A stretch of 64,000 nt of DNA from Omnitrophica WOR_2 bacterium GWF2_43_52 (GCA_001805445.1 MHGF01000003.1:184429-248428); one strand, 5' to 3'; shown: positions 17,361 to 45,546, numbered from the stretch's first letter. Translations and numbers: made by a program. The notes: generated by a model from the sequence alone, not told the origin.

Positions 17361-17915
17361 ATGTTCCCAAACCTGAAATACGACTTTAGAAGAATATACC
17401 AAAAGACTTCCTATACAGGAAAATTGAGGAAGGTGTTTGCCTGCTTGGGCGCGCAGGGGTTTCAGGCGGTAATGGGGTATCGGATATGCCGCTGGCTATT
17501 TCTTAAGCGCATCCCTATAATTCATCTTATTATCCAAAGATTTATTGAAATTACCACCGGCATCTCTCTACCCCCGGAGGCGAAAATAGGCAAAGGGCTT
17601 TTGATAATGCATTTTGGAGGGATTATCATAAATTCTGACGTTAGTATGGGAGATTTCTGTACCATTGGCCATGGCGTAACTATCGGGAACAAAAGGCCGG
17701 GAGGCACATCTCCGAAAATTGGAAACAACGTGTATCTGTGCGCGGGGGCAAAGGTATTAGGTGAAATTGCGATCGGCGATAACAGTATTGTGGGAGCTAA
17801 TGCCGTAGTATTAGAGAGTTTTTCTGAGAATTCGGTAGTGGGAGGTGTCCCCGCGAAACTTATAAAAAAAATTGAAAACCCTCAAGAATATAAGGGTTTT
17901 ATCTATGAAGATTAA
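17361..17915 (+). CDS. Hexapeptide-repeat (LbH) acetyltransferase, serine O-acetyltransferase-like
   Basis: GKGLLIMHFGGIIINSDVSMGDFCTIGHGVTIGN…GNNVYLCAGAKVLG…IGDNSIVGANAVV are left-handed beta-helix hexapeptide repeats. Confidence 0.65.
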   Translation: MFPNLKYDFRRIYQKTSYTGKLRKVFACLGAQGFQAVMGYRICRWLFLKRIPIIHLIIQRFIEITTGISLPPEAKIGKGLLIMHFGGIIINSDVSMGDFCTIGHGVTIGNKRPGGTSPKIGNNVYLCAGAKVLGEIAIGDNSIVGANAVVLESFSENSVVGGVPAKLIKKIENPQEYKGFIYED

Positions 17916-19029
17916 AGTGTGCATAGTGATTGATAATCTTTATGCCGGCGGCACCCAGCGCCAGCTTTTAGAATTCCTCAAATCGTGCGACAGGCAGAGA
18001 TTTAATATCACGGTCATCAGCCTTGACGGCCAAAGGAATCCTATGGAGGCTGATATTGTTTCCTTAGGGTATAGTGTGCTGCGGGTAAGCCATAAGGGAT
18101 TTTTCAATCTCACAACTATTTTTTCCTTATGCCGCATTTTCAAAAGCGAAAAGCCTGATATTGTACATACCTATCTCTATACTTCAGATTTCTACGGGCG
18201 CTTAGCCGCCATATTTAGCAACATCACGGCCATCATATGCTCAGTGCGCAATATTCAGATCTGGAAAAAATGGTATCATCTTTTAGCTGACAAGATATTA
18301 TCCAGTTTTACTGACACAATAACCGTTAACGCGGAGAATATAAAGCCGTATTTGATTAAAAGGGCGGGAATTAATCCGGACAAGATACGTACCATCTATA
18401 ATGGCAAGGATTTAAGCAGGTTTGCGCACTTACGCGACGCAGATGAAATGAAGAGAGAATTAAGAATACCGCAAAATTCCTGTGTGGTGGGAATGGTGGG
18501 GCGCTTTAGCGAGCAAAAGGATTATCCTACGTTTCTCAAAGCGGCAAAAAAAGTATCCCAGAGCCTTCCCGACACCTATTTCGCCGCAATCGGAGACGGC
18601 CAGACAAAACAGGAAATGCGGGATTTGGCTCTGCGTTTAGGGCTCAGCGGCCATACTATTTTCACCGGTTTAAGAAACGATGTCCCGGATCTAATCAATA
18701 CTCTGGATATTGGGGTCTTAGTAAGCCATTATGAAGGTTGCCCCAATGTCATCCTGGAATATATGGCAGGGTCAAAGCCCACGATTGCCGCGGATGTAGG
18801 AGGATGCGCCGAAGTGATAGAAGATGGTAAAACCGGTTTTATCGTAGCACCCCGGGATACCGAAGCCTTAGCAGAGAAGATTATCACATTGTTAAAGGAC
18901 ACTTCAATGCGCGCGCGTATGGGGGAAGCGGGAAGAAAAAGAGTAGAAGAATGTTTTTCCCTAAAAAAAATGGTGCAAAGCACAGAAAACCTCTATACAG
19001 AGCTTTATCAGCAAAAGTATAGCCACTAG
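17905..19029 (+). CDS. Family 4 glycosyltransferase
   Basis: KIKVCIVIDNLYAGGTQRQL…EGCPNVILEYMAGSKPTIAADVGGCAEVIEDGKTGFIV. The start is taken at ATG 17905, and the gene overlaps the acetyltransferase stop by 11 nt. Confidence 0.7.
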   Translation: MKIKVCIVIDNLYAGGTQRQLLEFLKSCDRQRFNITVISLDGQRNPMEADIVSLGYSVLRVSHKGFFNLTTIFSLCRIFKSEKPDIVHTYLYTSDFYGRLAAIFSNITAIICSVRNIQIWKKWYHLLADKILSSFTDTITVNAENIKPYLIKRAGINPDKIRTIYNGKDLSRFAHLRDADEMKRELRIPQNSCVVGMVGRFSEQKDYPTFLKAAKKVSQSLPDTYFAAIGDGQTKQEMRDLALRLGLSGHTIFTGLRNDVPDLINTLDIGVLVSHYEGCPNVILEYMAGSKPTIAADVGGCAEVIEDGKTGFIVAPRDTEALAEKIITLLKDTSMRARMGEAGRKRVEECFSLKKMVQSTENLYTELYQQKYSH

Positions 19030-19032
19030 GAG

Positions 19033-19064
19033 AGGCGGAGCCTCCATAGGGAGGCTCCGCCTCA
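19033..19064 (+). terminator. 12-bp GC-rich hairpin (GGCGGAGCCTCC-atag-GGAGGCTCCGCC)
   Basis: A perfect inverted repeat between the GT4 gene and the next radical SAM gene. The U-tract is weak. Confidence 0.35.
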
Positions 19065-19077
19065 AAACGTAGAAAAC

Positions 19078-20229
19078 ATGAAAACATTCGCTAAGAAAAT
19101 CGCACGGAAGCTGGGGCTGCGTTTTGACGACCTTGTCTGGCCTTATTATTGGGCCGCGTATAACTTTTTAGGTGGGAAGGCGTTTAATCCCCTAAAAATA
19201 ACCATAGAGCTTACCTATGGGTGCAACCTTCGCTGTAAAATGTGCCCTTTGGAAAATGCCAAGGCTGATGAACACACGCCAGCGCCAAATTCTCAAAAGG
19301 AATTATCAATTGATGAACTGCAAGGCTTTGTTAATGACTTAAAAAAGCTTAAGGTAAAATCTATCCTGCTTACCGGCGGTGAGCCTTTTATAAAAAAAGA
19401 TATTGAAAAGCTCATCGCGAAGATTAAAGAAAATAACTTTTACTGCTGTATCCTCAGCAACGGCTATTTTATTACCGAGTATCACGCCAAGAAATTAGTG
19501 GATGCCAAGGTTGACCTGATCAGTTTTTCTATGGACGGGCCCCAAGCGCTGCACAATAAAATCCGGGGCGTTGACGATTCTTTTGAGAAAATATGCCAAA
19601 GCATAAAACTCATTCAAGCCGAGAAAAAACGCGCCCATTCAGCGCTTCCCAGAATCATCCTTAATTGCACCATTTCCGCGCTTAACCAGGAGCACATAAG
19701 TGAAATTGTTGATATTGCTCATGAATTGGGGGTTGAATTAGTAGATTATATGTACCTGTTTTATACCAACCCGGAAAAAATCACCGCTACAAAGAGTGTT
19801 ATGGCGGTAGGCAGCCTAAAGCCGGAAAGCCAAATCCTGCCTGAGAGCATAAAAAAGATAGATGCCCAAAAGCTTATTCAGGAGGTCAACCGGGCTAGGA
19901 ATAAGGCAAAGGAATATAACATCTCTATCGGCTTTAATCCTCCGCTTAAGGACAGTGAAATCGAGAAAAGGTTTTTTGATGATTCATTTTCTTTTAGCTC
20001 AAAATGCTTTTATCCCTGGTTTGAAACCAGGCTTGACCCTTACGGCAATGTCTATCCCTGCTCTTTAGACGTTCCAATGGGTAATATCAGAAAAATGCCT
20101 TTTAGCCAAATCTGGAACGGCGCTCAGTATATTGATTTTCGCAATAAGCTAAAACAGCATAAATTATTGCCGATGTGCGCCAAATGCTGCAAGCTGGTGT
20201 ATCGCTATTGGTCAAAGCTTCCCACCTGA
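19078..20229 (+). CDS. Radical SAM / SPASM-domain enzyme
   Basis: YGCNLRCKMCP is a CxxxCxxC motif. TGGEPF is the glycine-rich motif. The C-terminal Cys-rich region (CSLDVPMGN…CAKCCKL) follows. Confidence 0.65.
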   Translation: MKTFAKKIARKLGLRFDDLVWPYYWAAYNFLGGKAFNPLKITIELTYGCNLRCKMCPLENAKADEHTPAPNSQKELSIDELQGFVNDLKKLKVKSILLTGGEPFIKKDIEKLIAKIKENNFYCCILSNGYFITEYHAKKLVDAKVDLISFSMDGPQALHNKIRGVDDSFEKICQSIKLIQAEKKRAHSALPRIILNCTISALNQEHISEIVDIAHELGVELVDYMYLFYTNPEKITATKSVMAVGSLKPESQILPESIKKIDAQKLIQEVNRARNKAKEYNISIGFNPPLKDSEIEKRFFDDSFSFSSKCFYPWFETRLDPYGNVYPCSLDVPMGNIRKMPFSQIWNGAQYIDFRNKLKQHKLLPMCAKCCKLVYRYWSKLPT

Positions 20230-20230
20230 C

Positions 20231-20271
20231 TTACCGAGGCTAAGCCTCGTTTACGAGGCTTAGCCTCGGTA
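20231..20271. repeat. REP family B: inverted pair of ACCGAGGCTAAGCCTCGT / TACGAGGCTTAGCCTCGGTA
   Basis: A 41-bp composite palindrome. Related units occur at 1583-1605, 23568-23589 and in tandem at 38866-38905. Confidence 0.5.
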
Positions 20272-20281
20272 TGACAAAAAG

Positions 20282-23200
20282 ATGAAAAAAATCGCTTTTA
20301 TTTTTTCCCAGTTCCCCTGCTACGATGAAACCTTTATCTTGCGGGAGATGAATGCCTTGAAGGAAGAAGGGCTTGATTTTATGATATTTTCCCTAAAAAC
20401 CCCTAAGGATGCAATCATTCATTCTGAGGCAAGGGAATTGGCGCAGGATACTTTGTATATACCTTTTCTATCGCTTAAAGTATTTCTGGCGCAACTTTCC
20501 ACTTTGTTGATACATCCTCTTAAATACATAGGCGCGTTTTTTCATATTGTGAAGATATATATCAAAAGCAGCGATTTCCTATTAAAGTCTCTTGCCCTGT
20601 TTCCAGAATCCGTGTACGCGGCGAAACTATTTAAGAAAATGGAAATAAGCCATATCCACGCCCAATGGGCAACGCATCCGGCAACAAGCGCCATCATTAT
20701 CTCTCGGCTCACCGGCATACCATTTAGCTTTACCGGCCATGCCCATGATATTTATGTAAGCACGGCAGGGCTGAAAGAGAAGATACGGGACGCGCGGTTT
20801 GTGGTGACGTGTACTGAAGATAATAAGAAATACTTGGAAAAATTAATAAATAGTCACCAGGTCACCACGTCACAAGGTCACAAGGTAGAACAAAGTCACA
20901 AGGTCACAAGTCACAAGTCACAAGTTAAAATTATAGTTAACTACCATGGGGTTGATTTAAAGCGTTTTAGCGCCCTACATCCCACATCTGAGGTCACGCA
21001 TCCTACATCCATCGTCCATCGTCCATTTCACATCCTCTCTGTCGGAAGTCTCCTGGAATGCAAAGGTTTTGACACCTTGATTGAGGCCTGCGGGCTTTTG
21101 AAGGAGAGAGGCATTGACTTTGAATGTACGATTGCCGGAGGAGGGAGGCTTCTTAGTAGCCTACAGTCCATGGCCCAGAGTAGACAGTTAAAAGATAATG
21201 TAAAATTTACAGGATATATTACCCAAGATAAGCTCATCCCATTATATCAGGAAGCGGATGTGTTTGTTTTGGCTATGGTGCCGGATATTCATTGGGGGAT
21301 TCCCAATGTCCTGCTTGAGGCTGCCAGCTGCGCTGTGCCAATTGTCTGCACGATGCTGCCATCTATCCCGGAACTGATTGAAGACGGCAAAACAGGCTTC
21401 ATTACTCCACCCAAAGACCCAAAGGCAATAGCGGATATACTGGAAAAACTGTATCGCGATGAAGCAATCAGAAAACAAGCAGGGGAAGCGGCACAAGCTG
21501 TAATTGAAGATAAGTTTGACACAGTAAAAAATGCCCAAAGGCTGAAAGAATTATTTTCCACCAATTCACCAAAACAACCTACGAGGTTGAAAATTCAACC
21601 TCGTAGGTTGTTTATGCGGTCATTACTCAGCACAATTTTTTACTTGTTTACTTTTTTTCGTAAGAGAGAAGGGATACTTGTGCTTAATTACCACCGGGTA
21701 AACGATACTCTGGCTGTCAACGAGTTAGTGGTAAGCACAAAAACCTTTGAAGAGCAGATGCGCTATCTTAAAGAGCATAACTATAGAGTGATTGGGTTAC
21801 AACAAATGCTCAACGGGCTAAGCGTTGCCCCGCTTAAGCGCGAACCGGTTCACCCGCGAACTGTCCTGATAACCTTTGATGATGGTTTTCAGGATAATTA
21901 CCTTAATGCTTTCCCGATACTCAAGAAGTTTGGCTTCCCCGCGGTACTATTCTTAACTACAGGGATGATTGATACAGACAAAAAGTTTAAGAAGTACACA
22001 CATATGCCAAGCCCGGATATGCTCACTTGGAGCCAGGTAAGAGAAATGCACAATTACGGAATTGAATTTGGCGCGCATACCGTAACTCATAAACTGCTTA
22101 CTCACATAAGCGTTGACGAAGCAACAAAAGAAATACGAGAGTCGGGAAAATTAGTGTGCGAATTCGCGAGTTCAAAGACATGCGCGTTTTGCTATCCCGC
22201 GGGAGACTACAACAAAAAAATCAAAGAGATAGTCAGTGAATCTGGCTATACCTGCGCCTTCACGGTAAAACCGGGGATAAACCAAAGTACTGACGATTTA
22301 TTCGCGCTTAAGCGCACCGCGATAAATGGTAATGACAGCCTCTTTGATTTCAGGAAAAAACTCGCTGGTGCCTATGACGCACTCCACACCTTTATCCAGG
22401 CGCGAAAAAGTCCTCACTCGTTCCGCGTCCATCGTCCATCGTCCATCGTCAATCGTCAATCGTCTCCCCTGAATGTCCTTTATATCATCTGGTCTTTGGG
22501 CTTAGGAGGAGCAGAACAGGTAGTAATTAACCTCGCGCGAGGCTTAGACAAAAGTAAGTTTAAGCCGATGGTTTGCTGCTTAAACGACAAAGGCGTATTT
22601 GCCGATGAATTGGAAAAAGAGGGAATAAAGGTTATCGCTTTAAATAAAGGCGGGAAATACGATATTACGGTTATTGGTAAATTAATCAGTGTTATGCGAG
22701 CAAACAAAATATCAATAGTCAATACGCATCTTTGGGGGGCAAACCTCTGGGGAAGGATTGCGGCAAAAATTGCTCATATTCCTGTGGTAATTGCTACAGA
22801 GCACAACACCGATATATGGAAAAGTAACTTCTATTTTGTACTTGATAAAGCGCTCAGCTATTGTTGCGATAAAATCATCGCGGTTTCAGGAAGCGTCAAG
22901 GAATTCTACCAGAGTAAAGGAATTAACCCGGGAAAGATAGAAGTAATTTATAATGGAATAAAAGCACATGGGTCACCACGTCACCACGTCACCACGTCAC
23001 ATACGAGAGAAAATTTTGGAATTAAGAATGATGAAACGGTTTTAGCCATCATCGGCAGGCTGGTTCCCCAAAAGGGGCATAAATATCTTTTTGAGGCGTT
23101 GGGGTTGTTAAACGGTTATTGCAAAACGAAATTATTGGTCATAGGAGACGGCCCTTTAAAAGAAGAACTACGCTCAATCGCAAGCAGCCTGCAGCTAAAG

Positions 23201-23596
23201 GATAAAATCATATTTACCGGCTTGAGAAGGGATGTGCTGGACTTACTAAAGATTGTTGATATTGTGGTTATGCCTTCATTGCGGGAAGGCCTGCCGATTA
23301 TCGCCCTTGAGGCAATGGCATCTAAACTTCCGGTAATCGCCACCAAGGTAGGCGGAAATCCAGAAGTCATTACAGACAACCAAACCGGAATATTAGTCCC
23401 CGCGGAGAATACCATAGCCTTGCTGAGGGCAATAGAAAAATTAACTAAAGACAAGGCCTTACGCGAGCAATTGGGAGAAAACGGCTACACTCGGCTCAAG
23501 AAGCATTTTTCAATAGAAAAGATGGTTTCAGCCACGGAAGAATTGTATCTAAAGATATATAGACACAAAACGAGGCTTAGCCTCGTAATAGAATGA
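20282..23596 (+). CDS. 1104-aa tri-domain ORF: GT4 glycosyltransferase, CE4 polysaccharide deacetylase (NodB-like), GT4 glycosyltransferase, joined by repeat-encoded linkers
   Basis: Domain 1 ends …GIPNVLLEAASCAVPIVCTMLPSIPELIEDGKTGFI. Domain 2 carries VLNYHRV…VLITFDDGFQDNY…FGAHTVTHKLL. Domain 3 carries …GLPIIALEAMASKLPVIATKVGGNPEVITDNQTGILV. All three are in one frame with no stop codon. The junctions are occupied by REP A (21575-21610) and by 7-8-nt tandem repeats. Confidence 0.55.
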   Translation: MKKIAFIFSQFPCYDETFILREMNALKEEGLDFMIFSLKTPKDAIIHSEARELAQDTLYIPFLSLKVFLAQLSTLLIHPLKYIGAFFHIVKIYIKSSDFLLKSLALFPESVYAAKLFKKMEISHIHAQWATHPATSAIIISRLTGIPFSFTGHAHDIYVSTAGLKEKIRDARFVVTCTEDNKKYLEKLINSHQVTTSQGHKVEQSHKVTSHKSQVKIIVNYHGVDLKRFSALHPTSEVTHPTSIVHRPFHILSVGSLLECKGFDTLIEACGLLKERGIDFECTIAGGGRLLSSLQSMAQSRQLKDNVKFTGYITQDKLIPLYQEADVFVLAMVPDIHWGIPNVLLEAASCAVPIVCTMLPSIPELIEDGKTGFITPPKDPKAIADILEKLYRDEAIRKQAGEAAQAVIEDKFDTVKNAQRLKELFSTNSPKQPTRLKIQPRRLFMRSLLSTIFYLFTFFRKREGILVLNYHRVNDTLAVNELVVSTKTFEEQMRYLKEHNYRVIGLQQMLNGLSVAPLKREPVHPRTVLITFDDGFQDNYLNAFPILKKFGFPAVLFLTTGMIDTDKKFKKYTHMPSPDMLTWSQVREMHNYGIEFGAHTVTHKLLTHISVDEATKEIRESGKLVCEFASSKTCAFCYPAGDYNKKIKEIVSESGYTCAFTVKPGINQSTDDLFALKRTAINGNDSLFDFRKKLAGAYDALHTFIQARKSPHSFRVHRPSSIVNRQSSPLNVLYIIWSLGLGGAEQVVINLARGLDKSKFKPMVCCLNDKGVFADELEKEGIKVIALNKGGKYDITVIGKLISVMRANKISIVNTHLWGANLWGRIAAKIAHIPVVIATEHNTDIWKSNFYFVLDKALSYCCDKIIAVSGSVKEFYQSKGINPGKIEVIYNGIKAHGSPRHHVTTSHTRENFGIKNDETVLAIIGRLVPQKGHKYLFEALGLLNGYCKTKLLVIGDGPLKEELRSIASSLQLKDKIIFTGLRRDVLDLLKIVDIVVMPSLREGLPIIALEAMASKLPVIATKVGGNPEVITDNQTGILVPAENTIALLRAIEKLTKDKALREQLGENGYTRLKKHFSIEKMVSATEELYLKIYRHKTRLSLVIE
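20853..20924 (+). repeat. Tandem GTCACCA / GTCACAAG units (about 8 copies) inside domain 1 of the fused ORF
   Basis: caccaggtcaccacgtcacaaggtcacaaggtagaacaaagtcacaaggtcacaagtcacaagtcacaag, which encodes a Ser/Thr/His/Lys-rich stretch. Confidence 0.6.
21575..21610. repeat. REP family A pair embedded in-frame inside the fused ORF (at the GT4 / deacetylase junction)
   Basis: CAACCTACGAGGTTGAA-a-TTCAACCTCGTAGGTTG, translated as …QPTRLKIQPRRLFM…. Confidence 0.6.
22426..22464 (+). repeat. 5.5 tandem copies of the heptamer CGTCCAT / CGTCAAT inside the ORF (at the deacetylase / GT4 junction)
   Basis: cgtccat cgtccat cgtccat cgtcaat cgtcaat cgtc. The unit length is not a multiple of 3. Confidence 0.65.
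22972..23001 (+). repeat. Tandem octamer GTCACCAC x3 (+GTCACAT) inside domain 3
   Basis: gtcaccacgtcaccacgtcaccacgtcacat, encoding SPRHHVTTSH. Confidence 0.55.
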
Positions 23597-26500
23597 ACAA
23601 AAAAATAATACTTATTGCTTTAGGCGGTTTTATCGCGGGAATACTCTTTTGCGGAGGAAGTTATATTGCATTTAAAAAATCAAAGCCATTTATTAAAAAG
23701 GTGGCGAAAAAGCTGGAGGAGCGAAGGATTGCCGCTATCCCAAAGGCAAAAGAACCGCTTACACTTTTTGACTTTGAAACTCCTGCTGATACGGGGAAAT
23801 GGTCTGTAAGCCGCGCGGCGATAGATCTTTCCCTGGAACACCCGGCAAGCGGCGCGTCATGCGCGAAAATCACCTTTTTGCCTTCAGGGGCGGCATCATC
23901 AATACGCTTAGATACCTATTTTGAGAAAAATAAAGCCTTGCAAGACTGGTCTCGCTATGAAGTCATTACTTTTGATATCTTTAACCCGTCTTCCACGACA
24001 GAAAGAATAATCCTGCAAATTAAAGATACCAATGATGATAAAATCAAAAGAGACTTATACCTTGAACCTAACACCAATAACCACATAGAAGTTGATATCT
24101 CGGAATTATGGGGAGCATTAAAACCATCCCACCTAAACCAATTCAACCTTTTTCTCTGGGACAATAAGGCTACAAAAGTATTCTATCTTGATAACCTAAG
24201 GCTCCTGCCTTCGGCGATGCTTGAGAAGAAAAACATCAATATCGCTTCTGAAGAATATTTGCCTAAGCCGCAGGAGAAAATTTACGCGATAGAAGACTAT
24301 TTCGCGTTTAATGACCTGAAATGGAAAAAAACCGACCCCCAGACTAACACCGCCTATGTCGCGATACCGCTTATGCTCAGTAAAAATTATCTGCCTAGCG
24401 TTCCAGTAAACCTACCTATATGCGGCGGGATTCCTTTAGGAAAGGGGCAACTCTATACTATTGAAAATTTAGAATTGGTTGATAGCCAAGGTGTTCAGAT
24501 ACCCGCGCAAACCAAGATAATGGCTACGTGGCCTGATAAAAGCATCAAATGGCTGTTATTAAATAGCATCATCCCTGTCTCAAGCCAAGAGAAAAATAAC
24601 TATTACCTGCGATATGCTAAGGATATCCAAAGGCAAACGTATCAGGCTAAGCTCACTGTAGAGGAGAATCAAAATGAGGTAACGGTTAATACCGGAAAAC
24701 TTAGATTCACCATCAGTAAGCGAGGTTTTTGCCTGCTAAACAAGGTATGGCTTGATAAAAACAGCGACAGCACCTATGACGAAGCGGAAAGCCTCTCTTC
24801 ACAAGGTGACATGGTAATCGTGCACAAGGGCAAAGAATACAAGAGCTCTTTGGATAAAAATTATTCCCTTACTATTGAGGAATCAGGGCCGATAAGAGTC
24901 TGCTTAAAGGCGCAGGGATGGTTTGTGGCGGAAAACGGCAAAAAATTCTGCCAATTCAGTACCCGTATCTATGCGTTTGAAGGCTCAAGCTATATCAAAG
25001 TCCAACACACTTTTGTCTATACCGGCTACCCTGAAAATAAAGTGCATTATCTTTATAAAGGTAAACGCCTTCCCGAGAATGAAACCATTGACGCGATTTA
25101 TATCAAAACCCCGCTTAATGTAGGTGAAAATAAGCAATTCACTTTTGCCGCTGATAATAAAATTATGCAGGCGGGTTTAACAGAAAATACGGAATTCCTG
25201 CAAAGTAAATTTAATAGTTACACAATAACTAAGGGCGCCAATAGCCTGGGCTCAGGCGCTAAATTAGACGGCTGGATTGATGTAAGCACGCAAAGCGAAG
25301 GGGTAACCCTCGGAATAAAAAACTTCTGGCAGCAATACCCCAAAGGCTGGCTTTTAGATAAAGAGAAGAAAAATATCATTACCTATATCTGGCCGGCTCA
25401 GGCGGGAAAACTTGATTTTAAGACTACCCCTGAGGCTCTTGGGCCTGATTCGGTAGCCCGCGGCAGCGCCTTCGGAGTAGCTAAAACACATGAGCTGTTT
25501 TTTTATTTTCATACAGGGGATTACGCGGCGTCAAACGCGAAAGATATAGCCTATAGCTTAACCTCGGATATGCTAGTAACAGCAGCGCCGCAATGGGTAG
25601 CGGATACTAAGGTTTTAGGCAGGATATATCCGGCAGACAGCAGATTCTCTCAGGCAGAAGAATTTTTAAGCCGTCTATTTGACTGGGGCGCGCGTCAAAT
25701 TGAAAACTTCGGCTGGTACGGGATGGTTGATTTCGGCGATACCTTAAGCTGGCATAGAGACTCGGATGAAGATAATTCCTACGATACCGCGGACTGGCAT
25801 CCGGTGGGGCGGTGGGGGTGGTTTAATTGCGAGGCAGTGGGCACGCATACAGGGGCATTAATGCAATTCCTACGCAGCGCTGACTATAAATATTTAAAAT
25901 TCGGGGCAAATCAGGCGCGGCATAGTATGGATATAGATACCTGCCATTATAATACCGTTAGTAATGACAAACGCTTAAAAGGCGTAATCCCCGATGACTA
26001 TAGCCGGGTCGGCTCTATGCATAGGCATAATGGCAACCATTGGGGTGACCGTAATGAAGAAGCCTCTCATACTAATCTGACAGGATTGCTTTTGTATTAC
26101 TATATCACCGGCGATGAAAGGGCACATGATGTGCTTGATGAAATGGGAAGCTTCTTCTTAAATGAAAGGCTCACCTATTTTCGCCATCCTGATATGGCGC
26201 CGCAGCGTTCTATTGCCAATGTGCTTTGGGGCGAAGTGCTCTTATACGAACTGACCGCTGATGAAAGATATAAAAAAGCGGCGGATACATGGGCGGGATT
26301 ATTGTACCTTGGCCAAAAACATGATGGGGCATGGGCTGAAGATTATAACCCGGTTAAAAAGAGATGGGACGGAAGGCCTCATGGGGGCTATATCCGGGAA
26401 TATACCATACCTGCCTTAATTGCCTATCATCAGCTTACCGGCAACAAGGCTATTGCCGGCTCAATTCTTAAAGCGACAGAGTATGTAATCAAGACAGAGG

Positions 26501-26727
26501 AATATGGGGCATATTTTGACGGCTCCGCCTATTGCTATTGGTTAACAGGGGATAGGAGATATTTAGCTAACCTCCAGCAAAGATTAGATTATAGCATTAA
26601 CCATCAACGAAAAAGCAGCGACCCCCTGCAGGATGGCATGATTTACCAAAAGGCATATTACGCGCGGGTGATGGAATATCTGTATAAAATGCCCTTCGCC
26701 CTTGAGCCGCTTACTCATGAAAAATAA
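23593..26727 (+). CDS. Large (1044 aa) N-terminally membrane-anchored protein of unknown function; possibly a carbohydrate-binding module plus an alpha/alpha-toroid polysaccharide lyase/hydrolase-like domain
   Basis: An N-terminal transmembrane helix is followed by a beta-rich module, then a C-terminal region rich in W/H/D/Y (…HRHNGNHWGDRNEEASHTNLTGLLLYYYITGDERAHD…) reminiscent of heparinase-II/III-like folds. No firm motif match. The gene overlaps its neighbours by 4 and 26 nt, so it lies in the operon. Confidence 0.3.
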   Translation: MNKKIILIALGGFIAGILFCGGSYIAFKKSKPFIKKVAKKLEERRIAAIPKAKEPLTLFDFETPADTGKWSVSRAAIDLSLEHPASGASCAKITFLPSGAASSIRLDTYFEKNKALQDWSRYEVITFDIFNPSSTTERIILQIKDTNDDKIKRDLYLEPNTNNHIEVDISELWGALKPSHLNQFNLFLWDNKATKVFYLDNLRLLPSAMLEKKNINIASEEYLPKPQEKIYAIEDYFAFNDLKWKKTDPQTNTAYVAIPLMLSKNYLPSVPVNLPICGGIPLGKGQLYTIENLELVDSQGVQIPAQTKIMATWPDKSIKWLLLNSIIPVSSQEKNNYYLRYAKDIQRQTYQAKLTVEENQNEVTVNTGKLRFTISKRGFCLLNKVWLDKNSDSTYDEAESLSSQGDMVIVHKGKEYKSSLDKNYSLTIEESGPIRVCLKAQGWFVAENGKKFCQFSTRIYAFEGSSYIKVQHTFVYTGYPENKVHYLYKGKRLPENETIDAIYIKTPLNVGENKQFTFAADNKIMQAGLTENTEFLQSKFNSYTITKGANSLGSGAKLDGWIDVSTQSEGVTLGIKNFWQQYPKGWLLDKEKKNIITYIWPAQAGKLDFKTTPEALGPDSVARGSAFGVAKTHELFFYFHTGDYAASNAKDIAYSLTSDMLVTAAPQWVADTKVLGRIYPADSRFSQAEEFLSRLFDWGARQIENFGWYGMVDFGDTLSWHRDSDEDNSYDTADWHPVGRWGWFNCEAVGTHTGALMQFLRSADYKYLKFGANQARHSMDIDTCHYNTVSNDKRLKGVIPDDYSRVGSMHRHNGNHWGDRNEEASHTNLTGLLLYYYITGDERAHDVLDEMGSFFLNERLTYFRHPDMAPQRSIANVLWGEVLLYELTADERYKKAADTWAGLLYLGQKHDGAWAEDYNPVKKRWDGRPHGGYIREYTIPALIAYHQLTGNKAIAGSILKATEYVIKTEEYGAYFDGSAYCYWLTGDRRYLANLQQRLDYSINHQRKSSDPLQDGMIYQKAYYARVMEYLYKMPFALEPLTHEK

Positions 26728-27613
26728 AGACGCGATAATAATTGACAAGAAACCTCTCGTGCTGATGTACCATTCGGTAGGAGCGCCTGGCCCTTGCGAG
26801 GTGGGAGCGGAGCTGTATTGCGTCAACACCGAAAATTTCAGGAAGCAGATGGAGTATATCTCAAAAGTCACCAGGTCACTCCCGACGCTTCGGTCGGGAC
26901 AGGCAGGTCACCAAGTTACCAGCTCGCAAAATACAAAGGATGAGGAACGAGAGAAGAAAGACGATAGAGAAGGGATGATGGAAGATGGACAAGAAAAAAG
27001 AAACCACAGACCATTGACTATAGACCATCGACCAATTGTAATAACTTTTGACGACGGATTGCTCGATAATTACACGAATGCCTATCCTATACTCAAGGAA
27101 TTAGGACTAAAAGCGTATTTCTTTATTTTAGCCTCGAAAATCGGGACTGAAGGTTTTATGAACTGGGAACAGATAAAAGAATTAAAGAGTGCGGGAATGT
27201 ATATAGGCTCGCATGGAATGACTCACCGAATATTGACTGAGCTTAACGACGCGGACATGGAGTATGAATTACGTAAGTCTAAGCAACTCTTAGAAAAAAA
27301 CCTGGCTTGCAGTAGTGACTATCTCTCTATCCCGCGAGGATTCTACAATCAAAAGGTTATTGCCAAGGCAAAAGAAGCCGGCTACAAAGCGATTTTTACT
27401 TCTAATCCCAAAGATAACGATGGTTTTACCTTCGGCCGTATCGCGGTAAAAGGAAATTGGGACACAAACTACTTTATACGCGTCACTAAGAAAGGGCTGT
27501 CTTTAAAAGACAAAACTAAGGAGCTATTAAAGAACACTTCCAAAAAAATATTAGGCGCTAAAACCTACGACACCCTAAGAACCACCCTCCTCAAACCAAA
27601 TTCAACCTCGTAG
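26702..27613 (+). CDS. CE4 polysaccharide deacetylase (NodB homology domain) carrying a repeat-derived low-complexity insertion
   Basis: LVLMYHSV … IVITFDDGLLDNY … GSHGMTHRIL … are NodB motifs. Between the N-terminal YHSV block and the TFDDG motif lies a K/E/D-rich segment of about 57 aa encoded by 26866-27037, which contains GTCACCA units and a CCCGACGCTTCGGTCGGG hairpin. Confidence 0.6.
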   Translation: MSRLLMKNKDAIIIDKKPLVLMYHSVGAPGPCEVGAELYCVNTENFRKQMEYISKVTRSLPTLRSGQAGHQVTSSQNTKDEEREKKDDREGMMEDGQEKRNHRPLTIDHRPIVITFDDGLLDNYTNAYPILKELGLKAYFFILASKIGTEGFMNWEQIKELKSAGMYIGSHGMTHRILTELNDADMEYELRKSKQLLEKNLACSSDYLSIPRGFYNQKVIAKAKEAGYKAIFTSNPKDNDGFTFGRIAVKGNWDTNYFIRVTKKGLSLKDKTKELLKNTSKKILGAKTYDTLRTTLLKPNSTS

Positions 27614-27659
27614 GTTGAAACAATTTGTCGTCGGGAATAAAATTCAACCTCGTAGGTTG
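27601..27659. repeat. REP family A composite: TTCAACCTCGTAGGTTGAA - conserved linker (AATTTGTCGTCGGGA) - TTCAACCTCGTAGGTTG
   Basis: Lies immediately upstream of the RAYT gene. The same linker occurs in the copies at 30414-30475 and 45486-45546. Confidence 0.65.
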
Positions 27660-27688
27660 TTTTGGGAAATAGGAGGAAAACAAAATTT

Positions 27689-28351
27689 ATGAGAAAAGAC
27701 TTGCTTAGGACTGCTGAAATTTATCATGTTGTAAATAAAAGTATCGCGGGGTATACTATATTTAACAACAATGAGGAGTTTTTCAGGATGCTGAGCGTCA
27801 TCCGTTATTACCAAAGAAAGAACCCCGGCATCAGTTTTTGCAGATTCTTTGACCCTTCCGAAGACGGAAAAGATAACTTCTGCGATTTTACTGTTTTAGA
27901 AGATAAGGAAAAACTTGTCGAGATAATTTCATATTGCCTTATGCCAACCCACTTTCATTTAATTTTAAAACAGCTTATTGATAACGGAATCTCAACCTTT
28001 ATAAGCAATGTTGCAAATAGCTACGCGCGGTATTTCAACCTCAAACATAAACGAAAGGGCCCGCTTTGGGAAGGAAGATTTAAGAGCATTCTGGTAAAAT
28101 CCGATGAGCAGCTACTCCACTTAACACGATACATTCATTTAAATCCAGTAACAGCCTTGATAACAAACGAGCCTCACGACTGGCAAATGTCTTCTTATAA
28201 TGAATATGCCTATACCATGGCTGAAAATAAAAGAATCTGTAATTACAGCGATATTTTGAGCATCGATCCTGATTCTTACGGTAAATTCGTTAAAGACAGG
28301 ATTGCTTATCAAAAAGAATTGGCTAAAATTAAGGCTTTAATGCTTGAGTAA
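27689..28351 (+). CDS. REP-associated tyrosine transposase (RAYT; IS200/IS605-type Y1 HUH transposase)
   Basis: HUH motif in …CLMPTHFHLILKQ…, and a catalytic-Tyr region …LHLTRYIHLNPV… An AGGAGG RBS lies 8 nt upstream of ATG 27689. The gene is flanked on both sides by REP A palindromes. Confidence 0.7.
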   Translation: MRKDLLRTAEIYHVVNKSIAGYTIFNNNEEFFRMLSVIRYYQRKNPGISFCRFFDPSEDGKDNFCDFTVLEDKEKLVEIISYCLMPTHFHLILKQLIDNGISTFISNVANSYARYFNLKHKRKGPLWEGRFKSILVKSDEQLLHLTRYIHLNPVTALITNEPHDWQMSSYNEYAYTMAENKRICNYSDILSIDPDSYGKFVKDRIAYQKELAKIKALMLE

Positions 28352-28360
28352 CACCACGCA

Positions 28361-28400
28361 TTCAACCTCGTAGGTTGAAATAACAACCTACGAGGTTGAA
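28361..28400. repeat. REP family A pair (TTCAACCTCGTAGGTTGAA … CAACCTACGAGGTTGAA) immediately downstream of the RAYT
   Basis: The inverted arrangement is directly visible. Confidence 0.65.
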
Positions 28401-28413
28401 TCAGGTTAAAATT

Positions 28414-30413: not shown

Positions 30414-30475
30414 ATCAACCGCGGAGGTTGCGGAAATTTGTCGTCGGGAAAAAAAATCAACCGCGGAGGTTGATT
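30414..30475. repeat. REP family A variant composite: ATCAACCGCGGAGGTTG - linker (AAATTTGTCGTCGGGA) - ATCAACCGCGGAGGTTGAT
   Basis: The arms are a variant of the unit, and the linker is the same as in the 27601 and 45486 copies. Confidence 0.6.
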
Positions 30476-34928: not shown

Positions 34929-35891
34929 ATGGTAAGAAAAGTAACACTTATAACCTTAGCGGCATTCGGACTGCTCATCGGCAGACTGCCTAATGCCCAC
35001 GCCGCTACCTTCGCGACCGGAGATATTTTTGCTTCGGTAGCCAGCGGTAATGTAAACTGGTATCGGGCTGATGGATCATTTGTCCAAACCCTTAATATCG
35101 GAGCAGGCGGCTTTACTACAGGTATGGCCTTTGATGCTGCCGGGAATCTTTATGTCACAGGGTTCTCTGTCGGCACAGTTGACAAATTTGATACCAGCGG
35201 AAACCCATTAGGGAATTTTGCCGCGGGGCTTCCTACACCGGAATCTATTGTGTTTGATAATTCCGGAAACGCGTATGTGGGAAATGTGGGTGGCAGTATT
35301 AGAAAATTTGATTCTGCCGGGAATCCTTTAGCTACCATTCTTGCCGGTACCAGGGTCGATTTTATGGATCTTATGGCAGACCAAACCACCATGCTTTATA
35401 CGCAGGAAGGCGGCCTAATTAAATCGGTCAATGTAGCCACGAACACCGGGCTGGCTGACTTTGCCTCAGGTTATGGCGGAAGCCAGGCATTCGCCCTGCG
35501 TGTCTTAGCTGATGGCGGGGTTCTCTTAGCCGACAGGGTAAATGTAAAAAGGTTTAACTCAGCAGGCACCCTTATCCAAAGCTATGATATCGGGGGAGAA
35601 GACAGCTGGTTTGCCCTTAACCTCAATCCGGATGGAAACTCTTTCTGGAGCGGAAATTATAGTACCGCGAATCTCTATGAATTTGACCTTGCATCCGGAG
35701 TCAATACCCAGATTCTCAATACCGGGACAGGTGGGAACACTTTGTACGGAGTGGGTATTTTCGGCGAGCAAACCCAGGGATGCCAAGATTGCGGTGGAAC
35801 AGATAATAATGTTATTCCCGAACCTACCACCATGTCGCTTTTAGGCTTAGGGCTTTTAGGGTTAGCAAAGTTAAGAAAAAAAGCCGCATAG
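34929..35891 (+). CDS. Secreted PEP-CTERM protein with NHL/beta-propeller-like repeats (paralog 4)
   Basis: Repeated …GNPLGNF… / …SGNAYVGNVGG… / …AGNPLATI… blades, followed by …NVIPEPTTMSLLGLGLLGLAKLRKKAA. Confidence 0.65.
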   Translation: MVRKVTLITLAAFGLLIGRLPNAHAATFATGDIFASVASGNVNWYRADGSFVQTLNIGAGGFTTGMAFDAAGNLYVTGFSVGTVDKFDTSGNPLGNFAAGLPTPESIVFDNSGNAYVGNVGGSIRKFDSAGNPLATILAGTRVDFMDLMADQTTMLYTQEGGLIKSVNVATNTGLADFASGYGGSQAFALRVLADGGVLLADRVNVKRFNSAGTLIQSYDIGGEDSWFALNLNPDGNSFWSGNYSTANLYEFDLASGVNTQILNTGTGGNTLYGVGIFGEQTQGCQDCGGTDNNVIPEPTTMSLLGLGLLGLAKLRKKAA

Positions 35892-35961
35892 TCATCGTCT
35901 TGTGACATGGTGACTTTGTGACTTGTGACTCTATAAGTTTTTTAAATCTACAGTAGAGGAG

Positions 35962-36765
35962 GTGAAAAACATAATGAAGAAAGTATTAATCGCGTTGTTT
36001 GTATTAGCATTAGCTGTTAGCGGTGCCACAAAAGCTCAAGCTATAAATATTCCCGCGGGTCCAATTACCTTTCACTGGACAAATTGGGAAACTAGAGTCG
36101 ACGAAGTAGATGATACCTTAGACGGTATCTTCAGACTTGACCAGATTCTCCAAGGTGTTAACGTTATCTGGAGTGCTGGTGGCGGCGAAGAGCTTACTGG
36201 AACCTTTCAAAACCTGACAGTAGATACTTTTGATGGAGAGAGTGTTGGTGATATCATAGGATTTTCAGGTGGTGACTTACAAGTATATTTAGACACCACC
36301 CCTGACTTTGATCCTACGTCTCCGGGAAGCGGGGTAACTGATGGTGACCTTTGGTTAGACATGGACTTTGTAACCGGAGGAGATTTCTTTAACCCTACGA
36401 ATACTCTCACTTCAATCGTAACCGGCGCAGGAGTTGATCCCGACGCAGTTCTTTCTATCAAAGGAACAGGTTCAGGGTTACTTGAGGTAGTTGGCGGTAG
36501 CGCGGCAGGTATCTTTGACACCAACACCTATGCCCGTCTTGATGGAAGCGGCTTGTTCGCTGATATGAGTTTGTCCGCAAACTTTTTTATCAGATATACA
36601 GGTACAGATCCATTTGATGTGACTGGGAATAGGAAAGATGGCTGGGATGTCTGGAGCAGTGACCCTATCGGGGCCAATGCAGTTCCTGAACCAACCTCAA
36701 TGCTGCTTTTTGGCATGGGAATGGCTGGTTTAGTAGCAAAGAAGTTAGCAAAGAAAAGAGCCTAA
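35962..36765 (+). CDS. Secreted PEP-CTERM protein (paralog 5)
   Basis: Signal peptide, then …AVPEPTSMLLFGMGMAGLVAKKLAKKRA. Confidence 0.6.
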   Translation: MKNIMKKVLIALFVLALAVSGATKAQAINIPAGPITFHWTNWETRVDEVDDTLDGIFRLDQILQGVNVIWSAGGGEELTGTFQNLTVDTFDGESVGDIIGFSGGDLQVYLDTTPDFDPTSPGSGVTDGDLWLDMDFVTGGDFFNPTNTLTSIVTGAGVDPDAVLSIKGTGSGLLEVVGGSAAGIFDTNTYARLDGSGLFADMSLSANFFIRYTGTDPFDVTGNRKDGWDVWSSDPIGANAVPEPTSMLLFGMGMAGLVAKKLAKKRA

Positions 36766-38402: not shown

Positions 38403-39953
38403 GTGCTAAAAAACCTTCTCGCAGTATACGCAAGGCACATTAAAGGTTTATCTTGTTCAAGCCGGGTTATCAATTTTTCATTCGCGAAACATAAAGCAAA
38501 ACCCTTCCTTATTCAGCCTGATGAAAACCGCAGCCTAACTTTCCAAGAGCTAGAAACACTGACTGAAAAAGCCGTTTTACTCTTAGCAGAAAAAGGTATC
38601 GGGGAAGCAGAGGTAGCGGCGTTTAGCGCTTCTAACTGTATAGACTACTTTATAATCAGAGCGGCCTGCCATATACGCGGAGTTATCTTCTTCGGGTTAC
38701 CACCGACCCTTACCCAAGAGCAAACTATCCATTTCCTGACTGTCTCAAAGGCAAAAATTTTCTTTTATCAGAACCGCGATGACGCGGCAATTGAGGAAAT
38801 AAAGGCAAAGGCTCAAGTAAAATACCTCGTGGAACTTAACACTGGCTTTCATAGCACAACCACAGACGAGGCTAAGCCTCGTAAAACGAGGCTAAGCCTC
38901 GTAACCGACGGCAATCAATGCGCTACGTTTAATCTCAGTTCCGCCACAACAAGCAAAACCCCAAAGATAATCCGGCTCTCGGATACTAACTGGATAGAAA
39001 GCCTCTATGGCTATATACGTAATGCCACACTAAAAACCGCTCAACGCAATGTTTTTTTCTGCAGTGTGCCTCTTTTGACCGCTGGCTCTACCACATTCCT
39101 GCCTTGCCTTCTATCAGGCTTTAGCTGCCTGGTAGTAAAAGAAACTATTGCCATAGAGCATGTGGTTAGCTATAGTATACAGTATAACGTTACCCGGCTC
39201 TATATTACGCCCAGCAGGCTCTTAGAATTATTAGAGTGGTGTAAAATACATAACCAGCATTTTAGCGCGTTAGAGAGTATCGTTACCGGAACCGAGAGGA
39301 TTCCCACGCTGCGGCTCAAAGAGGCAATCGACTACTTCGGGCCAATTATCAGCGTTGGCTACGGAATGGCGGAGGCGCTTCCTCCGATTTCGTTACTCTC
39401 ACCTGGCGTCTATCATAAATTAGGTAGTGTGGGGAAAATCGCCAAAGGGGTAAAGATTAAAATTACCGACGAGGGAAGAATCGCCATTAAAAGCAAGACG
39501 GTAAGCATGGGGTACTTGGATAATCCGACTGAAACCTCCCAGCATTTTAAAGACGGCTGGTTTTACAGCGATGATTACGGGTATATAGATAAAGATAAAT
39601 ATCTTTATATCTTCGGCAGGAAAGAGGAGATTTTAACTGAGAGCCCGCGCCGTATTTTTGCCAAGGAAGCAGAAGACAAGCTCTACACCCTTGCCTTTAT
39701 TAACCGATGCGCTGTCTTAAGTAGAAACGCTCAGATGTATATTTTCGCATCCCTACGCGAAGCCATAGGAAACGATCAAGCAAAAAATGCGATCCAGAAA
39801 ATTTTCGATGAAAACTTCAAAAACATCCTTGCCCTTAAAAAAATCATCATCAAAGAAGCCTTACCCATCAACGCCTTTGGAAAACTTGATAGGAGAAGGT
39901 TAGAAGAGGAAATAACTATAGCCTGTGCAACTGAAACATTGTTTACATTTTAG
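38403..39953 (+). CDS. Divergent AMP-dependent synthetase/ligase (acyl-activating enzyme)
   Basis: A degenerate A3 motif LSSATTSKTPKII. A8-like motifs …YSDDYGYIDKDKYLYIFGRKEEIL… and GYGMAEA. The CDS contains an in-frame REP B tandem. Confidence 0.45.
   Translation: MLKNLLAVYARHIKGLSCSSRVINFSFAKHKAKPFLIQPDENRSLTFQELETLTEKAVLLLAEKGIGEAEVAAFSASNCIDYFIIRAACHIRGVIFFGLPPTLTQEQTIHFLTVSKAKIFFYQNRDDAAIEEIKAKAQVKYLVELNTGFHSTTTDEAKPRKTRLSLVTDGNQCATFNLSSATTSKTPKIIRLSDTNWIESLYGYIRNATLKTAQRNVFFCSVPLLTAGSTTFLPCLLSGFSCLVVKETIAIEHVVSYSIQYNVTRLYITPSRLLELLEWCKIHNQHFSALESIVTGTERIPTLRLKEAIDYFGPIISVGYGMAEALPPISLLSPGVYHKLGSVGKIAKGVKIKITDEGRIAIKSKTVSMGYLDNPTETSQHFKDGWFYSDDYGYIDKDKYLYIFGRKEEILTESPRRIFAKEAEDKLYTLAFINRCAVLSRNAQMYIFASLREAIGNDQAKNAIQKIFDENFKNILALKKIIIKEALPINAFGKLDRRRLEEEITIACATETLFTF
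38866..38905 (+). repeat. Two tandem REP family B units (ACGAGGCTAAGCCTCGTAA x2) embedded in-frame in the AMP-ligase CDS
   Basis: acgaggctaagcctcgtaaaacgaggctaagcctcgtaac, translated as …DEAKPRKTRLSLVTD…. Confidence 0.55.
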
Positions 39954-45485: not shown

Positions 45486-45546
45486 ATCAACCTCCGCGGT
45501 TGATTTTTTTCTCCGACGACAAATTTCCGCAACCTCCGCGGTTGAA
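45486..45546. repeat. REP family A variant composite in reverse orientation (ATCAACCTCCGCGGTTGAT - linker - CAACCTCCGCGGTTGAA)
   Basis: The linker is the reverse complement of the AAATTTGTCGTCGG linker seen at 27620 and 30440. Confidence 0.6.

Follow-up and report, generated by a model that had tools for sequence, protein, structure and literature searches.

Does an open reading frame (ORF) in which several enzyme modules are joined across stretches of repeat DNA owe its architecture to those repeats? The question is raised by a 64,000-nucleotide stretch of the uncultured Omnitrophica WOR_2 bacterium GWF2_43_52 (GCA_001805445.1 MHGF01000003.1:184429-248428), which at its full length is here called the window. 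Positions 20282 to 23596 of the + strand form a single ATG-initiated ORF of 1104 codons that has no internal stop and encodes, in order, a GT4 glycosyltransferase, a CE4 deacetylase, and a second GT4 glycosyltransferase, with repeat sequence at both junctions (junction 1 before the deacetylase and junction 2 behind it). An earlier note on this DNA had suggested that repeat-mediated gene fusion created a trifunctional enzyme or, alternatively, that stop-free repeats had erased the gene boundaries. We conclude instead that the ORF is probably an old modular enzyme whose fusion was inherited, the repeats being passengers tolerated in its linkers. Because homologs of ∼50% identity are continuous through both junctions, the fusion predates the repeats.

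A homolog search of 5.8 billion proteins yielded eight proteins (P0002-P0008 and P0010) that share 46-53% identity with the ORF product, cover 98-99% of it, and run uninterrupted through both junctions. Their linkers consist of ordinary non-repeat sequence, and most carry a fourth, N-terminal GT4 module; the full series is denoted GT4(0), GT4(1), CE4, and GT4(2), of which the ORF in the window comprises the last three. The junction 1 linker has 20 residues here as compared to 12-27 in the fused homologs, and the junction 2 linker has 21 as compared to 7-42 (21 in the closest relative). When the concatenated modules were placed in a neighbor-joining tree, the window grouped with its closest relative, and this pair was sister to a clade fused at both junctions. 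The claim that repeats created the trifunctional architecture is not supported, in view both of the eight fused homologs with their non-repeat linkers and of this uniformly fused sister clade.

Across species, the same modules occur joined or separate in nearly all possible combinations. When four module hidden Markov models (HMMs) were scanned against the open frames of 72 genome loci, all four modules were found fused in one locus (L008), fused two and two in L009 and L012, and separate but adjacent in L011, L017, L022, L072, and L077. GT4(0)-GT4(1) can be fused with CE4 and GT4(2) apart (L018), GT4(0)-GT4(1)-GT4(2) fused without CE4 (L013), GT4(1)-GT4(2) fused with CE4 alongside (L035, Lautropia), and GT4(0)-GT4(2) fused with each other (L020 and L021). 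A check of orthologous loci for separate genes, which the earlier note had recommended, found them in part: the closest relative has separate genes at junction 1, and no split at junction 2 was seen in any near relative. A scan of metagenome contigs for close strain variants recovered two distant loci only. Within the window, GT4(0) is a gene of its own, and the radical-SAM/SPASM gene that follows it looks like an insertion that split off this fourth module (Table 1). Two different GC-rich palindromes flank the radical-SAM/SPASM gene, at 19032-19063 and 20227-20276.

That a GT4 – CE4 – GT4 series occupies one stop-free frame over 3.3 kb was borne out by the ORF call and by Pfam matches above the curated cutoffs. 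Polysacc_deac_1 (PF01522) aligns with residues 522-658 (E 2.6e-25; 89 bits as compared to a cutoff of 23.1), and GT4 membership, in two copies, follows from PF00534 (273 bits in two stretches; cutoff 26.4) and PF13439 (116 bits; cutoff 28.5). In GT4(2), Glyco_transf_4 lies at residues 742-893 and Glycos_transf_1 at 909-1070 (whole-protein E 1e-81), and GT4(1) has Glycos_transf_1-type C-lobe matches at residues ∼281-421. The metal-binding and catalytic residues of CE4 are retained in nearly invariant alignment columns (TFDDG at 531-535, H599, H603, and Y638-P639), and T531-F-D-D-G535, H599, and H603 are at least 90% conserved in the alignment, which places the module with CE4/NodB-type enzymes. 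Both glutamates of the EX7E motif of GT4(2), E1002 and E1010, are invariant among nine full-length homologs, as is E346 of GT4(1), where the position of the first glutamate is a conserved HWGIPN segment; the GT4(1) N-terminus bears a SQFPCYDETFI motif that is invariant in the family alignment. With every module matching its family HMM over its full length and its catalytic motifs intact, the ORF has the appearance of a genuine multi-domain enzyme, as had been proposed. Named families fit less closely: the NCBIfam model EPS_EpsE aligns end to end with GT4(1) at 197 bits (cutoff 400), TIGR03088 reaches 227.6 bits with GT4(2) and 190 with GT4(0) (cutoff 409), and the PgaB/IcaB/HfsH-like NCBIfam matches of CE4 are all below cutoff. 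By these scores, the GT4 modules are related to the TIGR03088 and EpsE equivalogs but are not members of them. GenBank annotates the 1104-aa product as a hypothetical protein of Omnitrophica WOR_2 bacterium GWF2_43_52.

The continuous frame is not an accident of one assembly because the same sequence, with 0 differences in 3315 nt, is present on contigs from four independent sources (NCBI GCA_003499645.1, on a 360-kb contig; JGI 3300009031; Logan SRR3989339; and ENA ERZ27254750). Three additional 1104-aa haplotypes differ at one or two residues each. In all, at least five independent assemblies of an Omnitrophota (WOR_2) population contain the sequence. All assemblies compared were short-read assemblies.

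Table 1. Features of the multi-enzyme ORF and its surroundings (window coordinates)
Feature	Position	Strand	Description
Separate GT4(0) gene, 385 aa	17872..19029	+	Module HMM 416 bits; orthologue of the fourth N-terminal module
Radical-SAM/SPASM gene	19078..20229	+	Between GT4(0) and GT4(1), at the linker position of fused relatives
REP-B doublet	20227..20276		In the 52-nt spacer upstream of the ORF start
GT4(1)-CE4-GT4(2) ORF, 1104 aa	20282..23596	+	Putative multi-enzyme of an exosortase/PEP-CTERM exopolysaccharide locus
GT4(1) module, EpsE/WcaL-like	20282..21571	+	Residues 1-430; module HMM 689 bits
Array 1, GTCACAAG x9	20853..20925	+	80% matches, 72-73 nt (TRF); residues 191-215, GT4(1) inter-lobe loop
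Array 2, TCCATCG x2.7	21008..21026	+	Residues 243-249 (TSIVHRP), start of the GT4(1) C-lobe
REPIN-A, perfect REP doublet (AAACAACCTACGAGGTTGAA / TTCAACCTCGTAGGTTGTTT)	21572..21613	+	20+20 nt inverted repeat, 100% complementary
In-frame ATG (Met445)	21614..21616	+	Directly 3' of REPIN-A; heads the conserved hydrophobic RSLLSTIFYLF that opens the CE4 module
CE4 (NodB-type) polysaccharide deacetylase module	21614..22420	+	PF01522; catalytic residues retained
Array 3, CGTCCAT x5.6	22426..22464	+	96% matches; residues 715-728, junction 2 linker
GT4(2) module	22466..23554	+	Similar to TIGR03088 'stp2' (PEP-CTERM/XrtA-associated); Pfam, module HMM
Array 4, GTCACCAC x3.6	22972..23000	+	100% matches; residues 897-907, GT4(2) inter-lobe loop
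REP-B palindrome ACGAGGCTTAGCCTCGT	23570..23586	+	Encodes the last six, C-terminal residues TRLSLV, then stop
RAYT-like Y1 transposase gene	27689..28351 (with flanks 27601..28400)	+	Pfam Y1_Tnp; ∼6 kb downstream of junction 1

What, then, are the repeats at the junctions? Junction 1 holds an inverted doublet of a repetitive extragenic palindromic (REP) sequence, i.e., a REPIN. This REPIN-A has 42 nt, or 14 codons, and encodes KQPTRLKIQPRRLF, which accounts for 14 of the 20 linker residues; read directly, it is stop-free only in the frame used, the other two frames holding TGA and TAG. Its RNA is predicted to fold into a 19-bp hairpin (-31.9 kcal/mol, z = -9). The 16-mer core, AACCTACGAGGTTGAA, has 18 copies in the 64-kb window (at most three mismatches) as compared to 0.39 expected by chance, mainly doublets at gene ends, with others in intergenic spacers. 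This core contains GTAG, a tag typical of one REP superfamily (PMC3733652). REP-A copies flank a Y1 transposase gene on both sides (at 27601 and 27643, and at 28361 and 28385), and its product scores 34.2 with Pfam Y1_Tnp (cutoff 23) and 57.6 with the NCBIfam model of the REP-associated tyrosine transposase (RAYT), REP_Tyr_transpos, which is below the cutoff of 80 (E = 1.3e-15). This RAYT-like protein is likely to mobilise the junction 1 REPIN.

Directly behind the REPIN, the in-frame ATG to which the earlier note had drawn attention as a possible internal start was confirmed, and its surroundings match the start regions of stand-alone CE4-GT4 genes of relatives, which begin at or no more than four codons from the corresponding position (MRKLIRS in the closest relative, MHKLIRS in contig L080, and MKYIARS in P0049). 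A promoter and terminator scan of 17500-28500 gave counts equal to the shuffled expectation, with no canonical + strand terminator at the REPIN and no promoter for the internal ATG. We also considered whether the hydrophobic segment after Met445 could be a transmembrane anchor, which would bar the fusion topologically, and hold this to be unlikely: the segment has only ∼13 apolar residues and is kept in all fused homologs. At the other end of the ORF, where the REP-B palindrome supplies the last codons, the stop is overlapped by the ATG of the next gene (ATGA at 23593), and the C-terminus is unlike that of the closest relative.

Several other REP copies were seen in the window. A second REP-A subfamily, AACCTCCGCGGTTGAT, forms doublets with a 42-nt spacing in intergenic spacers at 30414-30471 and 45489-45546. 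A 303-aa CE4 gene (26702..27613) takes its final five or six codons and its TGA stop from the REP-A copy at 27601-27616. A REP-B doublet at 38866-38904 (a 20-mer twice, 13 codons, 'DEAKPRKTRLSLV') lies in frame inside the ORF of an AMP-binding (adenylate-forming) enzyme (38403..39953), just upstream of SSATTSKTPK, and the Pfam AMP-binding match (residues 28-372) is a single stretch across it.

The remaining repeats are tandem arrays with 7- or 8-nt units. Three of those in the ORF (arrays 1, 2, and 4), like the REP-B palindrome at the C-terminus, had gone unmentioned in the earlier note, and the junction 2 peptide quoted there, 'SIVHRPSIVNRQS', blends the junction 2 array with the shorter array 2; the actual junction 2 peptide is ...FRVHRPSSIVNRQSSP. 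Homologs carry 'RPSTIDHRP'-type heptamer peptides at the array 2 position. All four arrays occupy gap-rich alignment columns, and the ORF, with 5% of the sequence, holds four of the five arrays of period 7 or 8 in the window (P ∼3e-5). The only period-8 array outside the ORF (TTGTGACT x4, at 35900-35930) belongs to the reverse complement of the GTCACAAG family and sits in a 70-nt spacer; the genes on either side (34929..35891 and 35962..36765) both encode PEP-CTERM proteins, and a 15-mer repeat is located just upstream of the array at 35837-35865.

At the array 3 site, the closest relative (L005) has a degenerate heptamer repeated six times, with a common seed (TCGTCCCGCGTCC...) and an equal 21-aa linker. 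Because seed and linker length are both shared, array 3 is to be seen as old, homogenised in situ and not brought in as a mobile 'stitch'. The description of both junctions as mobile repeat therefore holds for junction 1, with its REPIN of a multi-copy REP family, and fails for junction 2, which is an in-situ microsatellite. An allelic replacement is seen in a strain variant (L081), which differs from the window at 29 of 3315 nt: 27 of the differences fall in a 71-nt patch (22957-23027), where a GTCACAAG-type array stands in place of GTCACCAC at the array 4 position, with length unchanged. The possibility that arrays are insertions that lengthen linkers was rejected at junction 2 and array 4 because neither alleles nor relatives differ in length there.

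Such arrays recur across species. Among tandem repeats in other species with a score of at least 44, periods 7 (n = 51) and 8 (n = 32) predominated as compared to periods 6 (n = 3) and 9 (n = 9). Inside full-length GT4 modules, 12 of 19 arrays, from eight species, lie at a relative position of 0.38-0.52, which is the inter-lobe loop (P ∼1e-6), and another 22 arrays are located no more than 100 nt outside a module boundary. The unit sequences vary by species, yet both L006 and L017 have GTCACAAG again. Very long intergenic arrays of heptamers or octamers were also seen in other Omnitrophota/Planctomycetes-Verrucomicrobia-Chlamydiae (PVC) genomes, e.g., CAGTAAG x28, CTCAAAT x16, and CCATTCC x11.6; their sites include L016 (7231-7544), L032 (9509-9621), L027 (1607-1687), L010 (47-159), and the whole of L077, in which related 8-mers stand at almost every gene boundary of the locus. 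A literature search on tandem repeats in Omnitrophota returned nothing relevant.

The repeats coincide with the parts of the protein that are predicted to be disordered. An AlphaFold2 model (mean confidence score, pLDDT, 77) falls below 50 at residues 193-213, 233-245, 428-460, 703-726, 898-902, and 1101-1104, segments that correspond to arrays 1-4, the REPIN, and the tail encoded by REP-B; otherwise, only two very short loops do so. In this model, the repeat-encoded stretches are low-confidence linkers. The idea that repeats shape protein architecture is thus acceptable in a narrow sense, as the linkers now consist of repeat DNA and their encoded sequence is shaped by it, and not in the wider one, as the architecture is older than the repeats. 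As far as can be judged at the sequence level, the repeats are occupants of linkers and not architects; they encode linkers and make junction 1 evolutionarily fragile.

A number of observations weigh against inherited fusion with passenger repeats. The neighbor-joining tree carries no support values. The idea of passengers explains neither why four of the five arrays of 64 kb should be in one ORF nor why the octamer GTCACAAG should be shared with species of only ∼51% identity (L006, L017). The two nearest data points, i.e., the closest relative and L080, are both split at junction 1, and they use an ATG that is homologous to, or four codons upstream of, the ATG at 21614, a pattern that would also be expected of a recently re-fused gene pair. 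Such a re-fusion is the most serious alternative, one that we consider possible but rather unlikely. According to it, the immediate ancestor carried a pair of genes, one for GT4(1) that terminated in or ahead of the REPIN and one for CE4-GT4(2) with an ATG of its own, and small indels beside the REPIN (+8 nt upstream and -11 nt downstream) opened the frame and bridged the boundary; it amounts to the earlier idea of stop-free repeats erasing a gene boundary, restricted to junction 1, and is to be held just as tentatively in that form.

The case for re-fusion comes from these two loci. In the closest relative (74-77% identity; ENA ERZ27297570), a 782-aa GT4(0)-GT4(1) gene, a PF05635 gene, and a 655-aa CE4-GT4(2) gene follow one another, and the last begins with MRKLIRSTLSS..., encoded from the homologous start ATG CGT AAA CTA ATA CGT. 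Over ∼700 nt to the left of junction 1, L080 (983 nt, assembled from a sister sample) matches the window without a difference; it then has a variant REPIN whose two arms carry symmetric substitutions. An 8-nt duplication found in the window is missing from L080, and its REPIN is read in a frame terminated by TAG; a second stop (TGA), an 18-nt spacer, and a restart (ATG CAT AAG CTA ATA CGT, MHKLIRS) homologous to the start in the relative follow. As compared to L080, the window is 8 nt longer before the REPIN and 11 nt shorter behind it and has lost 12 nt in frame past the ATG, and it is the net effect of these indels that places its REPIN in the only stop-free frame. The absence from the window of these 12 nt of the conserved start segment has the look of a derived loss, and all other REP-A copies of the window are at gene ends or in intergenic spacers. 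The REPIN of L080, AACCTACGCGGTTGAA, is intermediate between the two REP-A subfamilies.

However, L080 is at least partly chimeric: its left 115 nt come from an iscU-like gene that is unrelated, and the join falls exactly on the 8-mer array (array 1). The evidence for re-fusion is weakened by this, and we do not treat the contig as clean proof of a split strain. The iscU/nifU-like gene (L080 1-190, minus strand) could reflect either an array copy upstream of iscU elsewhere or an assembler jump between arrays. In addition, all members of the sister clade have junction 1 fused, the split in the closest relative has a different cause (insertion of the PF05635 gene), and the linker in the window has the length and basic character typical of ancestral fused linkers. 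Inheritance of the fused state is thus the likelier course at junction 1, re-fusion being distinctly the less probable. In either case, by these alignments, it takes only small indels next to the REPIN to turn one gene into two. The closest relative has two small PF05635 genes ('23S rRNA intervening sequence protein', a four-helix bundle) in its exopolysaccharide locus (L005 1-356), one at junction 1 and one between EpsH and EpsI, and they resemble mobile intergenic passengers.

Could the arrays instead be contingency switches, in which gaining or losing one unit moves the frame, so that the multi-enzyme is cut short at a module boundary or silenced and the surface polysaccharide varies within a population? 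The four arrays do show one mark of a contingency locus, a non-triplet tract (period 7 or 8) within an ORF, here in a glycosyltransferase gene for surface glycan and at module boundaries and inter-lobe loops; their enrichment in the ORF, the equivalents at corresponding sites in eight species, and the hypervariable array 4 patch all point in the same direction. Their layout resembles that of the tetra- to octanucleotide switches in Haemophilus lipooligosaccharide (LOS) genes. Heptanucleotide switches have also been discussed (PMC2651432). Array copy number, however, did not differ among L001-L004, L081, and the three haplotypes, although this is a weak test in that consensus assemblies hide minority variants. 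The sole variant allele (L081) keeps the exact length, the tracts are short or impure (2.7-5.6 copies; array 1 is just 80% matched), and array 3 has remained at about six units since the split from the 75%-identical relative, which speaks for long-term frame conservation and not for rapid switching. We thus regard phase variation as improbable and, on these data, unsupported.

A bolder version would make the linkers of Omnitrophota dedicated 'evolvability sites', at which REPINs and 7/8-nt arrays are maintained for reversible switching between fused, split, and truncated states. If true, it would allow modular phase variation of a multi-enzyme through single slippage or indel events, and it would explain both the unrelated units at like linker positions in many species and the coexistence of fused and split haplotypes at junction 1; we think the odds are heavily against it. 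It is very improbable that the uninterrupted ORF is a product of misassembly or a pseudogene in decay, with collapsed repeats hiding stops or frameshifts, as the short-read origin of the assemblies, the contigs that end at arrays (P0126 at ...HPTSIVHRPF in array 2 and P0122 just before array 3), and the one contig that is chimeric at array 1 are set against identity across different pipelines and samples, further haplotypes that keep the frame, repeats that are all far below read length, and modules that are full-length with intact catalytic motifs.

According to the inherited-fusion account, the ORF would encode a functional enzyme from a modular exopolysaccharide family that is old in Omnitrophota/PVC bacteria; the GT4(1)-CE4-GT4(2) chain was most likely inherited fused, and GT4(0) would have been detached by the radical-SAM gene in an old linker. 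Disordered linkers and GT-B inter-lobe loops would be the only sites that tolerate arbitrary sequence, and it is these that the repeats would occupy. The genome's own REP/RAYT system would have supplied the junction 1 REPIN, and a second REP type the C-terminus; the REPIN would contribute a basic 14-residue peptide and leave the typical 20-residue linker length unchanged. The non-triplet microsatellites of 7 and 8 nt would arise by slippage from local seeds, with selection keeping frame-preserving lengths. Array generation across the whole lineage, filtered by selection to indel-tolerant sites and such lengths, is the simplest account of their distribution, although it does not account in full for their enrichment in this ORF or for the octamer shared between species. 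The repeats would thus be tolerated and probably neutral passengers that now encode linker peptides and have made junction 1 fragile.

As to function, because the modules are fused in many lineages, they can be expected to work together. GT4(0), GT4(1), CE4, and GT4(2) may act on one lipid-linked repeat unit in an exosortase/PEP-CTERM, Wzy-dependent locus, the ORF in the window carrying out consecutive steps on the cytoplasmic face: sugar transfer, de-N-acetylation, and sugar transfer. Neighbors in the locus include Wzy, a hexapeptide acyltransferase, a pyruvyl transferase, GT2 and GT4 enzymes, the exosortase EpsH, EpsI, a Bac_transf priming transferase, and PEP-CTERM proteins.

Of the known systems, the closest in behavior are the Rickettsia palindromic elements (RPEs), short mobile palindromes that enter an ORF without disturbing its frame and contribute a peptide where the structure permits one. 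REPIN-A does the same, its segment (pLDDT <50) lying between two folded modules, and as with RPEs, several sites of one genome are affected, here junction 1, the ORF C-terminus, and the AMP-binding gene (38866-38904). In-frame RPEs in protein-coding genes have been described (PMC10969869). The likeness is one of analogy, as size and sequence class differ: RPEs are ∼100-150 bp, have no known dedicated transposase, and belong to an intracellular alpha-proteobacterium, whereas the element found here, in Omnitrophota, is a REP doublet of 42 nt that has a RAYT-like gene in its vicinity and lies in an inter-enzyme linker instead of within a domain. The REP/REPIN-RAYT systems of Pseudomonas and E. 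coli share the GTAG palindrome, the many copies, the inverted doublets forming a long hairpin, and the single Y1 transposase flanked by REPs (PMC3116915, PMC3733652). They differ in that REPINs are extragenic by definition, whereas at least two doublets here (junction 1 and 38866-38904) are translated in frame inside ORFs and two single REPs give C-terminal codons or a stop, and in that the transposase scores below the NCBIfam RAYT cutoff.

The modules themselves resemble exosortase/PEP-CTERM exopolysaccharide enzymes (TIGR03088 'stp2' and EpsE/WcaL-type GT4; PgaB/IcaB/HfsH for CE4) in folds, motifs, and type of locus (EpsH exosortase, EpsI, Wzy, priming transferase, PEP-CTERM proteins). The described families are single-domain, whereas three (elsewhere four) modules share a polypeptide here and the NCBIfam matches stay below the equivalog cutoffs. 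As for the arrays, the LOS and lipopolysaccharide contingency loci of Haemophilus, Neisseria, and Campylobacter likewise have non-triplet tandem repeats inside surface-glycan glycosyltransferase ORFs, but their tracts are long, pure, near the 5' end, and copy-variable between isolates, whereas those described here are short and in internal linkers. Dispersed heptamer repeats (cyanobacterial STRR; GGGAATC/GGGGAYT in Xanthomonas and Nostoc; TAACTGA in Beggiatoaceae) are also lineage-wide, with units recurring across loci and related species (PMC4692102, PMC4679880). Heptameric repeats are over-represented in many bacteria and have been described as mainly intergenic (PMC4692102); they are under-represented on the coding strand, whereas the arrays studied here are concentrated in ORFs at homologous linkers and 8-mers are as common.

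Both phenomena extended by this locus, i.e., in-frame palindromic elements and modular glycosyltransferase fusions, are already known. REP/REPIN sequences are normally treated as strictly extragenic, and one translated as an inter-domain linker would extend the RPE phenomenon to a REP-RAYT system. To our knowledge, mobile elements have hardly been described in the phylum Omnitrophota. The series of fused and split arrangements of the four modules provides a 'Rosetta-stone' argument for a single substrate and may aid the annotation of exopolysaccharide loci in Omnitrophota. For annotators, it is in the repeat-rich linkers that such genes will be split or made chimeric in error by gene callers and assemblers. 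The recurrence of 7/8-nt arrays at equivalent linkers across species is an unexplained regularity and the point most worth following up.

Immediately downstream of the ORF lies a gene for a 1044-aa protein (23593-26727) with PcRGLX-type (rhamnogalacturonan-lyase-like) domains; the relative has a GH123-like protein of similar size at this position.

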